DNA from: Acutalibacteraceae bacterium
GTDB taxonomy: Bacteria > Bacillota > Clostridia > Oscillospirales > Acutalibacteraceae
Length of the DNA: 64,000 bases
NCBI GenBank assembly: GCA_045590395.1
Contig: JAZNQX010000063.1
Span: forward strand, 5,135 to 69,134
Direction: 5' to 3'
In this document: piece by piece, positions 8,541 through 9,320 of the stretch
How positions within the stretch are numbered: the stretch's first letter is position 1
How the letters are laid out: each line of letters starts with the position of its first letter
The notes under the pieces: generated by a model
Told to the model about the DNA's origin: nothing
Seen by the model: the letters and a program-made list of their open reading frames with translations, nothing else
The model's database searches: none
Program-made: the position numbers and the translations under genes

Positions 8541-8650
8541 TGTAACAATTATAGAGGTTGGTAAAGAATAAAATTTTTTGTTTGCTGGTTATAAAACAAA
8601 AAATGCCGGTTTCGACATTTTAATTTTTCATTATTAATTAGTGAAGCGAT

Positions 8651-8706
8651 TTCAATATTCATTATTCATTACGGAAATCCGCTTTTAATGAATGATGAAT
8701 ATTGAA
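8651..8706. repeat. AT-rich 21-bp inverted repeat (20/21 match) separated by 14 nt
   Basis: TTCAATATTCATTATTCATTA (8651-8671) pairs with TAATGAATGATGAATATTGAA (8686-8706). It is built from iterated ATTCATT/AATGAAT units. Confidence 0.7.
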
Positions 8707-8732
8707 TAATGAAGAATGAATAGTACAAAATC

Positions 8733-8763
8733 AAAAATCCGTCCACTTTCGTGAACGGATTTC
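8733..8763 (-). terminator. Intrinsic terminator (minus strand) after the tRNA-Leu-linked module
   Basis: Minus-strand hairpin AAATCCGTTCAC-GAAA-GTGGACGGATTT followed by TTGATTTT. Confidence 0.6.
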
Positions 8764-8769
8764 CGATTT

Positions 8770-8859
8770 TGGTGCGGGTGACAGGACGCAACTCGCTATG
8801 CGATTTGCCCTGCTTGACGACCGTTGCCTTGCAACAGTACCCGTCTGCGCACCACACAC
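8770..8859 (-). other. 90-nt tRNA-Leu-like element / displaced tRNA-Leu 3' fragment ending in ...GTCCTGTCACCCGCACCA
   Basis: The 18-nt 3' end (8770-8787) matches the tRNA-Leu 3' end (8977-8994) at 17/18. The T-stem GCAGG/CCTGT is retained around a 23-nt inserted hairpin. The 5' heptamer GTGTGTG can pair 6/7 with CACCCGC. No D-arm is present. It is homologous to the element at 39696-39785. Confidence 0.5.
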
Positions 8860-8931
8860 CTAAAAAACAGTTCACAGAACTGTTTTCTTAACGGCGTGTG
8901 CCTTCATAAGCTTCAAGTCCTACCACCGCAA
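8770..8931 (-). repeat. tRNA-linked conserved module, Leu copy. Order: inverted T-arm fragment, hairpin+U-run, two-tier hairpin, direct T-loop-to-CCA copy
   Basis: Shares the blocks GTTAAGAAAACAGTTCnGTGAACTGTTTTT and GACGGGTACTGTT(C)GCAArGC(G)AACGGTCGTC with 39634-39785. The inverted fragment TTCAAGTCCTACCACCGC lies on the + strand at 8912-8929. Confidence 0.6.
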
Positions 8932-8940
8932 ATAAAACAA

Positions 8941-8975
8941 ATTCCGAGCTTAACCTAAAGGTCAAACTCGGAAAT
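8941..8975 (-). terminator. Hairpin + U-run directly after tRNA-Leu (minus strand)
   Basis: TTCCGAGTTTGACC-TTTA-GGTTAAGCTCGGAA followed by TTTGTTTTATTT. Confidence 0.55.
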
Positions 8976-8976
8976 T

Positions 8977-9059
8977 TGGTGCGGGAGACAGGACTTGAAC
9001 CTGCACGGTGAACCGCTAGCTCCTAAGGCTAGTGCGTCTGCCAATTCCGCCACACCCGC
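8977..9059 (-). tRNA. tRNA-Leu (anticodon UAG), type II with a long variable arm; CCA is encoded
   Basis: The reverse complement is GCGGGTGTGGCGGAATTGGCAGACGCACTAGCCTTAGGAGCTAGCGGTTCACCGTGCAGGTTCAAGTCCTGTCTCCCGCACCA. The anticodon loop is CTTAGGA. Acceptor pair 6:67 is a U-U mismatch. Confidence 0.93.
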
Positions 9060-9267
9060 AAATATTATTGAAATTTTGTTTTAAATCGGTTAATGAAGTT
9101 CTACTTGTATATCATCGGCAGCCGCACTACGTGCGTTACCCTCAGAAATATAGTCGTTCTGCTCGCTTGGAGCGCGTCGCATTACTCCTTATTTCTTCAC
9201 CTCAGCAAAGTACCTTCATCATCCACCGGATGCGGCACTTTGCTTCGCCCAATTCCGCCACACCCGC
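9060..9267 (-). other. Leader of about 208 nt upstream of tRNA-Leu that begins with a 19-nt duplicate of the tRNA 5' end, followed by structured RNA of unknown type
   Basis: 9249-9267 is identical to 9041-9059 (GCGGGTGTGGCGGAATTGG on the minus strand). Internal stems: AGCAAAGT/ACTTTGCT, CATCC/GGATG, AGAAATA/TATTTCT and GCAC/GTGC. Confidence 0.5.
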
Positions 9268-9291: not shown

Positions 9292-9320
9292 ATTTTATAA
9301 TAGAAACTCACTTATGTCAA
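9292..9320 (-). promoter_or_regulatory. Putative sigma-A promoter driving the leader + tRNA-Leu unit (minus strand)
   Basis: The minus strand reads TTGACA, 17 nt, TAAAAT. Confidence 0.6.

Follow-up and report, generated by a model that had tools for sequence, protein, structure and literature searches.

The stretch of DNA analysed here, called the window below, comprises 64,000 nt of contig JAZNQX010000063.1 from an Acutalibacteraceae bacterium (assembly GCA_045590395.1; 1.6 Mb in 186 contigs). Its minus strand, on which every feature given below with window coordinates lies, carries a gene for tRNA-Leu(UAG) at 8977-9059 (identified by ARAGORN, and by the Rfam tRNA model with 54 bits), followed by a 160-nt module at 8770-8929. 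With the two terminators that flank it, this module belongs to a large, widespread and previously undescribed family of gene-less cassettes, each about 150-200 nt long, found in gut and rumen Clostridia.

The host gene ends with GTCCTGTCTCCCGCACCA, in which T67 faces T6, and is followed by terminator 1 (8930-8976, with a hairpin at 8942-8973 and a T-run), the sole site flagged by a terminator scan in the region. Next comes an inverted fragment, GCGGTGGTAGGACTTGAA (plus strand TTCAAGTCCTACCACCGC), at 8912-8929, which is the reverse complement of the T-loop, the T-stem and the acceptor 3' strand of the tRNA; terminator 1, with the tRNA T-arm on one flank and this fragment on the other, forms a long quasi-palindrome. 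The inverted fragment provides the 5' strand of a closing helix, P1, and also holds an unpaired anti-T-loop, ACTTGAA. The core then contains a small hairpin, P2 (GCTT-ATGA-AGGC, 8900-8911), in or close to the loop of which truncated copies in relatives stop; the helix P3 (GCACACGCC with GGTGTGTG, 8853-8901), which surrounds P4 with the conserved linkers GTTAAG and TAG; the P4 hairpin with its U-run (8862-8886), AAAACAGTTCTGTGAACTGTTTTTT, composed of AAAACAGTTC-TGTG-AACTGTTTTTT; P5 (8810-8852), an outer helix and a core hairpin, GACGGGTACTGTTGCAAGGCAACGGTCGTC, with a conserved GGGTAC bulge; and P6 (GCAAATCGC-ATA-GCGAGTTGC, 8788-8809), a hairpin that differs among copies. A direct 18-nt copy of tRNA positions 59-76, GTCCTGTCACCCGCACCA, at 8770-8787 supplies the 3' strand of P1 and an ACCA tail, and is followed at 8726-8769 by terminator 2, a terminator-like hairpin of the form AAATCCGTTCAC-GAAA-GTGGACGGATTTTT.

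The original prediction, which had listed five elements next to tRNA-Leu, was correct in its inventory and coordinates, all of the elements being found within 8726-8976. It had also regarded the element as a second copy of a module behind tRNA-Lys, which is borne out by two core strings common to both copies that occur twice each in the window and never in 100 shuffles. The ends of the Leu copy are indeed specific to its own tRNA, the distal 18-mer matching the host 3' end at 17 of 18 bases (A67 in the copy, T67 in the tRNA) and being identical to the tRNA-Leu(UAG) 3' end in 13 of 13 congeners. The element is structured as well: the 160-nt module has a folding energy of -67.9 kcal/mol (z = -4.55), and its minimum-free-energy fold contains a P1 of 13 pairs that leaves ACCA single-stranded. 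No open reading frame lies within the Leu module, and Rfam searches at gathering and permissive thresholds returned no module family, just chance-level miRNA and snoRNA matches. A promoter scan gave no promoter-like site inside the module, leaving unsupported an internal promoter that would use TTGAA of the anti-T-loop as its -35 element.

The fold was evaluated on 50 copies aligned to a covariance model. The consensus consists of nine helical segments, grouped as P1 to P6, in which P1, formed by the tRNA-derived 18-mer and the inverted fragment, closes a structure of five helices. Consensus pairs are formed in 91% of 2364 cells, compared with 35-46% when partners are slid; the alignment is fitted to the model, so that these counts lean toward structure, and the margin is nonetheless large. 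Compensatory changes are present at 45 of the 55 consensus pairs, and the covariation score of 0.447 contrasts with 0.05-0.06 in slid controls and is reached by none of 500 shuffles. Moreover, G-U or U-G pairs outnumber A-C or C-A pairs by 166 to 24 over the aligned copies, an excess that points to the tRNA-sense strand as the one that folds. In the copy behind tRNA-Ser(CGA) the arms agree with each other better than with the tRNA, which supports P1 itself. A pseudoknot between the anti-T-loop and the P5/P6 junction was also considered and gave no convincing correlation.

The same genome harbors the module behind at least seven further tRNA genes. These are tRNA-Lys(UUU), tRNA-Leu(CAA), tRNA-Ser(GGA), tRNA-Thr(UGU) and tRNA-Glu(UUC), with further copies behind tRNA-Leu(GAG), split over two contig ends, and, in a variant form, behind tRNA-Ser(CGA). 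A covariance model (R1) built from five copies of this genome matches the Leu copy with 150 bits (E=4e-43) and has matches in 40 of 121 sampled genera of the same family, with at most 8 copies per genome. An exact pattern scan for the P4 hairpin in named genomes gave matches in Ruminococcus, Acutalibacteraceae, Oscillospiraceae, Eubacterium, Faecousia and Christensenella assemblies, including the cultured Ruminococcus sp. JE7B6, whose complete genome (NZ_CP162391.1) has arrays behind tRNA-Ser(GCU) and a single unit behind tRNA-Ala(CGC). Fifty-nine of these 132 matches lie at most 140 nt downstream of a tRNA gene, involving 30 tRNA species. Of about 38 loci, which represent more than 15 tRNA species, most have a direct repeat of exactly 18 nt. 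A literature search by topic words and by hairpin sequence found no paper on the module, and GenBank phage records contain no DNA match to it.

The design is not tied to tRNA, since it serves about 30 tRNA species and also rpsI. In 11 of the 132 hairpin matches a 19-20-nt reverse complement of the last codons and stop of rpsI (ATTATCTCTTTGAGAACTG) stands just 5' of P3-P4, and the real end of rpsI is found 95-140 nt further on; the neighbouring gene encodes ribosomal protein S9 (Pfam, 3e-49). Read in the rpsI sense, the gene end is followed by a terminator, the inverted copy, the core and the direct copy, as at tRNA genes, with the core flipped. This compact rpsI type, bounded by 19-20-nt repeats of the final codons and stop, occurs at loci L181, L183, L200, L222, L238, L243, L172, L185 and others, sometimes in tandem. 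The arms vary with the host gene and the P3-P4 unit alone is constant, this being the most conserved unit of the family and one found by itself in other phyla; other core types have the same front part. With its GTTAAG and TAG linkers the unit stands solo in Bifidobacterium (L148, L204), between rpsM and rpsK of Sphingomonas panni (L154) and, as read from the flanks, inside a putative IS630-family transposase gene of two proteobacterial assemblies (L191, L174). In these distant phyla the solo hairpin unit, 40 nt long, reads CGTTAAGAAAACAGTCCnGnGGACTGTTTTTAG and has short complementary flanks.

Comparison with related genomes bears on how the cassettes arrived. Among the 13 congeners compared at the tRNA-Leu(UAG) locus, 12 carry a terminator and flank immediately beyond the gene that are unrelated to those of the window, and one (G007, locus L041) shares terminator 1 and the inverted fragment before its sequence becomes unrelated, the break lying just past the inverted fragment. 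This comparison shows the Leu module to be an insertion, absent from most congeners. The tRNA-Leu(UAG) gene of the window, the sole such gene of the assembly, has the T6-T67 acceptor mismatch noted above, with A67 in 13 of 13 congeners; T67 may be a mutation private to this genome or an error in the consensus of the metagenome-assembled sequence, and the combination of A67 with terminator 1 in G007 likewise indicates a possible later change or assembly error. The idea that the distal 18-mer, with its A67, is the displaced native end of the gene is weakened by G007 and by the empty site at tRNA-Lys. This empty site is found in G018, which is syntenic on both sides and reads tRNA, terminator 1, CTTTTTTGG, TTATATTTGCC. 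In the window, 199 nt separate the T-tract from TTATATTTGCC, and the tRNA and its native terminator are untouched; the insert is made of a spacer, the inverted fragment, the core, the 18-mer and a terminator 2 that is similar to the native tRNA-Lys terminator of another genome (G014).

The junctions are not uniform. At tRNA-Leu(GAG) the repeat comprises the 18-mer and the entire terminator (57 nt), and in G009 (tRNA-Lys), several Thr-Tyr spacers and Ruminococcus sp. JE7B6 it extends through the inverted fragment to a point in or near P2/P3. Tandem arrays contain two or three units that recur every 198-202 nt. At the Thr locus the spacers that follow tRNA-Thr and the 18-mer are alike within a genome and both differ between genomes, so that the two flanking repeats keep exchanging sequence. 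In addition, a locus of G003 (L011) carries a core 82% identical to the Leu(CAA) copy with a Gln-type 3' copy and an antisense arm that is still Leu-like, so that cores do pass from one tRNA species to another, with an antisense arm that is left as it was on moving. The downstream flank of tRNA-Leu(UAG) is different in almost every congener, and tRNA tails therefore look like rearrangement breakpoints. A gene for a CobW-like GTPase follows tRNA-Leu(UAG) in G001 (L040) and the tRNA-Leu(GAG) module in the present genome (contig C76).

Where the cassettes are vertically inherited, purifying selection maintains them. At least 12 genomes of the genus have a Thr copy in the interval from tRNA-Thr to tRNA-Tyr, and over 12 orthologues the module has a mean pairwise identity of 90% and a length of 153 nt in 11 and 149 in one, whereas the flanking spacers are 54% and 51% identical and tRNA-Tyr is 96.5% identical. 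Double substitutions preserve P3 among these orthologues (GACAC/GTGTC, GGCGC/GCGCC, GCCTC/GAGGC). Decayed Thr copies in two genomes indicate that the cassette can be lost. In the Thr-module-Tyr unit of the present genome, promoter-like sites are located exclusively upstream of tRNA-Thr, the sole terminator-like site downstream of that gene follows tRNA-Tyr, and this tRNA-Tyr(GUA) is the only Tyr gene found in the genome. From this layout and the single Tyr gene we infer that transcription must cross the Thr module in the tRNA sense. The cassette would then be transcribed as a tRNA trailer or internal spacer, and the RNA would be the object of selection.

Taking these features together, we give about even credence to a transcribed trailer or spacer RNA cassette that spreads without an enzyme, by short-homology recombination via its copies of host-gene sequence. 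A cassette lies immediately downstream of a highly conserved gene, mostly a tRNA gene and in some cases rpsI, and runs from the host-gene 3' end through a terminator, an antisense copy of that end, the core P2-P6 and a sense copy (18-20 nt) to a second terminator. The antisense and sense copies pair as P1 and shut the fold, P3-P4 being its invariant heart. The cassette would spread as DNA without an enzyme of its own, in keeping with the enzyme searches described below, the short homology being offered by the host-gene-tail copies and the terminator T-tracts. Spread would take place either by Campbell-type integration of a looped-out unit or by recombination that anchors imported DNA on the conserved host gene. 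Homology-driven spread would account for units in tandem, for repeats of differing length and for first parts that stand alone. As a working guess, the RNA may have a cis effect on the tRNA transcript, since its antisense arm has two possible partners, the real T-arm and the decoy copy.

Several points weigh against this interpretation. A repeat of 18 nt or a T-tract of 7 nt offers very little length to RecA-type recombination, making the proposed spread kinetically weak. The sharp boundary between positions 58 and 59 in many tRNAs and the 19-20-nt rpsI repeat hint at a measured, enzyme-made junction, and the near-invariant P3-P4 hairpin across phyla is left unexplained. With respect to the RNA, the covariation of P1 is partly automatic, both arms being copies of one tRNA, the model-fitted alignment somewhat inflates the pair counts, and a single-stranded DNA would yield the same covariation and a similar G-T bias. 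P4 with its T-run resembles a terminator and could end transcription ahead of the core. Finally, either of the two terminators at tRNA-Leu(UAG) may be native.

An unlikely alternative is an undescribed guided mobile system of which the cassette would be the non-autonomous form. An enzyme supplied in trans would recognise P3-P4, and the antisense arm would serve as a guide by pairing with a target gene at its 3' end; cuts at the ends of the arm-target duplex would give an 18-20-nt duplication. This agrees with arms that match whichever gene precedes the cassette, be it one of about 30 tRNA genes or rpsI, with a repeat length that hardly differs between tRNA genes (18 nt) and rpsI (19-20 nt) though the latter has no T-loop, and with related cores at different tRNAs, as in the G003 locus. 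It would also suit the near-invariance of P3-P4 across genera and its solo occurrences in Bifidobacterium, Sphingomonas and the putative proteobacterial IS630 transposase gene. However, the Leu-like antisense arm beside a Gln-type 3' copy at the G003 locus implies that the arm was not rewritten at insertion and that a poor match did not block the move, and the junctions differ among loci, unlike a measured cut. Moreover, no candidate enzyme emerged. RVT_1 (PF00078) is absent from seven of eight cassette-bearing genomes tested, the present one included, and on this ground a reverse-transcriptase route, brought to mind by 18 nt being the length of a retroviral primer-binding site, was rejected. 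Y1_Tnp (PF01797) is absent from the present genome, from G133, which has 8 copies, and from G121, and a route through an HUH/Y1 hairpin transposase was discarded for lack of correlation with cassette presence. Recombinases are not shared either: no integrase is common to the high-copy genomes, the present genome having two Xer-like tyrosine recombinases and one phage-type enzyme, none adjoining a module, and G121 having two Xer-like ones only.

One recombinase gene does touch a module. It encodes a large serine recombinase (Resolvase, Recombinase and Zn-ribbon domains; C107:429-1990), ends with ...GGTGCACCA and abuts GCACCA, a terminator and the first part of the Leu(GAG)-type module, a junction also present in G014 (L012), whose contig stops within the recombinase gene, and in G121 (L062). 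As a mobiliser of the cassettes it was rejected, being single-copy and prophage-integrase-like, with more distant relatives that lack the module; it is probably a prophage integrase using the tRNA-Leu 3' tail.

It is doubtful that integrase-driven islands left the module behind as a scar or a miniature derivative, comparable to a cis-mobilizable element (CIME) bounded by the attachment sites attL and attR. A phage or island integrase of the T-loop class would then have recombined an element bearing the final 18 nt of the tRNA into the gene, and the att-flanked remnant would still be mobilisable in trans by integrases of this kind. The 18-nt direct repeat does begin in the T-loop, a T-loop class of tRNA attachment sites having reportedly been distinguished by Williams in 2002. 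A complete attP is about 200 bp, and this is the size of the cassette unit. At the Leu locus the distal copy with the ancestral A67, followed by a native-looking terminator and array, is compatible with a crossover inside the tRNA; tandem arrays resemble repeated integration; and prophages with tyrosine integrases, and one with the large serine recombinase, use the same tRNA tails beside modules. The Lys insert contradicts this expectation, since it lies downstream of the native terminator, which is intact, and comes with an 18-mer and a terminator of its own. Furthermore, the same design is found at rpsI with the core flipped, the core behaves as a folded single strand under purifying selection, unlike a scar, and several-copy genomes possess Xer-like recombinases only. 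The identity with the tRNA spans just 2 nt of the T-loop, so that the overlap region cannot be the loop. The modules of viral contigs, too, are in host DNA beyond the integrase gene and attR, not within the prophage, the provirus records containing the attR side alone. In IMG/VR provirus records (L116, L110, L111, L119), three tandem reduced-core units (GTTGATGAA...GAACAAGCC type) are located just outside a tyrosine-integrase attR, and this attR bears a 26-nt tRNA tail.

Programmable insertion also seems improbable to us as an account of the family. Here the cassettes would be one half of an undescribed system in which a single-stranded nucleic acid, with the invariant P3-P4 hairpin as a handle, directs its own insertion behind a conserved gene through an arm that complements the final 18-20 nt of this gene. 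The enzyme would come from the host or from a partner yet to be recognised, and the RNA would then gain a selected role in the host-gene transcript.

The original prediction had further drawn the last 90 nt (8770-8859) as a tRNA-like segment, and the idea that this is a tRNA-like RNA, a tRNA mimic or a pseudo-tRNA is rejected as extremely improbable. An acceptor-like helix, GTGTGTG/CACCCGC (6/7), and a T-stem-like helix, GCAGG/CCTGT (5/5), can be drawn in the Leu copy alone, with a 3' end of the form NCCA; over the 50 aligned copies, however, these helices are paired in 42.4% of cells, compared with 42.0% in shuffles and 27-46% in slid controls (35% for the acceptor-like helix and 52%, with no covariation, for the T-stem-like one), their covariation score is 0.109 against 0.116 in shuffles, ARAGORN and Rfam give no tRNA match at 8770-8859 even at E<=10, and the 3' strand of the supposed acceptor stem is taken by P1. 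The refuting outcome named in the original prediction, a lack of covariation among additional copies, therefore applies to these two helices. The covariation between the Leu and Lys ends that had been offered as support arises because both arms copy the adjoining tRNA.

Returning to the cassette spread by short homology, known elements resemble it in part. T-loop-class tRNA integrative elements and CIMEs share a location behind tRNA genes, the direct repeat of a tRNA 3' end from the T-loop, tandem arrays and a patchy presence. The cassette differs in having no integrase or cargo gene, a core that folds as a single strand and is under selection, an additional tail copy in inverted orientation, a Lys copy placed after the native terminator, and copies at rpsI. 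Repetitive extragenic palindromic (REP) sequences and their bacterial interspersed mosaic elements (BIMEs) or REP doublets (REPINs), as well as BOX, RUP and Correia-type elements, all of which resemble miniature inverted-repeat transposable elements, are similarly small, gene-less, multi-copy, hairpin-rich and located at gene 3' ends, and terminator-like effects are frequent in such repeats and in the cassettes. These families have fixed terminal sequences and, for REPINs, a RAYT/Y1 partner, whereas the arms of the cassette are copies of the host gene; the Y1 result given above covers the present genome, G133 and G121. If transcribed, the cassette would share with 3'ETS-leuZ of Escherichia coli, a small-RNA sponge derived from an external transcribed spacer, the nature of a non-coding RNA from a tRNA trailer or spacer that is conserved for its own function, but 3'ETS-leuZ is short, immobile and without tRNA-tail copies. 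The guides of IS200/IS605 elements, the bridge RNA of IS110, group IIC introns, which insert at terminators, and casposons likewise display target complementarity, insertion at terminators or 3' ends, or a long duplication; in casposons a long stretch of target is duplicated, at tRNA or EF-2 gene 3' ends. None of the proteins that define these elements (TnpA, IS110 recombinase, intron reverse transcriptase, Cas1) turned up in linkage with cassettes, the tests covering reverse transcriptase and TnpA, both absent.

Other repeats are present around the same gene. An array of ATTCAT-type heptamers lies downstream of terminator 2, as it does behind several other tRNA genes of the genome; it occupies about 8600-8725 and is two-armed, ATTCATT... 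being followed by AATGAAT.... A terminator with a heptamer array is also found behind tRNA-Gly, tRNA-Leu(UAA), tRNA-Pro(CGG), tRNA-Ser(UGA) and tRNA-Thr(CGU), heptamers at other tRNA loci including TGAAATA, GTTATAT and ATATCAT. A gene for a four-helix-bundle protein of the 23S rRNA intervening-sequence type often follows such terminator-array loci. On its 5' side tRNA-Leu(UAG) has a separate module (9060-9267), in which a copy of tRNA positions 1-19 (9249-9267) comes just after a promoter, TTGACA-17-TAAAAT (9292-9320), and is followed by a structured 132-nt segment, B' (9117-9248), and a spacer. Segment B' contains a TGATGA...CTGA (K-turn-like) motif and the hairpin GGGTAACGCACGTAGTGCGGCTGCC. 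This 5'-side module is single-copy in the present genome and occurs in five congeners (G005, G006, G012, G009, G013); a long repeat of hairpin, spacer and 19-mer is seen in G006 and G012, and the hairpin alone in G001 and G014. Finally, a second, unrelated module family (AAGTCTCGAGTAAGGCA..ACCGCTCGGAGCGGTC..ATGCCGACGnAGAGTA) was found after tRNA-Arg(CCG) on contig C132 and after tRNA-Tyr in G013, its end being a partial copy of the T-arm of its own tRNA.

If the reading of a trailer or spacer RNA cassette is true, gut and rumen Clostridia would hold thousands of copies at the tails of tRNA and ribosomal-protein genes, in a family that is maintained by selection and yet has no Rfam family and no matching paper in our literature search. 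This raises the questions of what role is played by a trailer RNA carrying a decoy and an antisense copy of the tRNA T-arm and acceptor end, how a gene-less 200-nt unit reaches about 30 target genes with matching arms, and whether the cassettes drive rearrangements at tRNA loci. Ruminococcus sp. JE7B6, which is cultured and has a complete genome with tandem arrays, makes these questions open to bench work. For annotation, it would be a mistake to take the short tRNA-tail repeats that follow tRNA genes in these genomes as plain scars of phage attachment.

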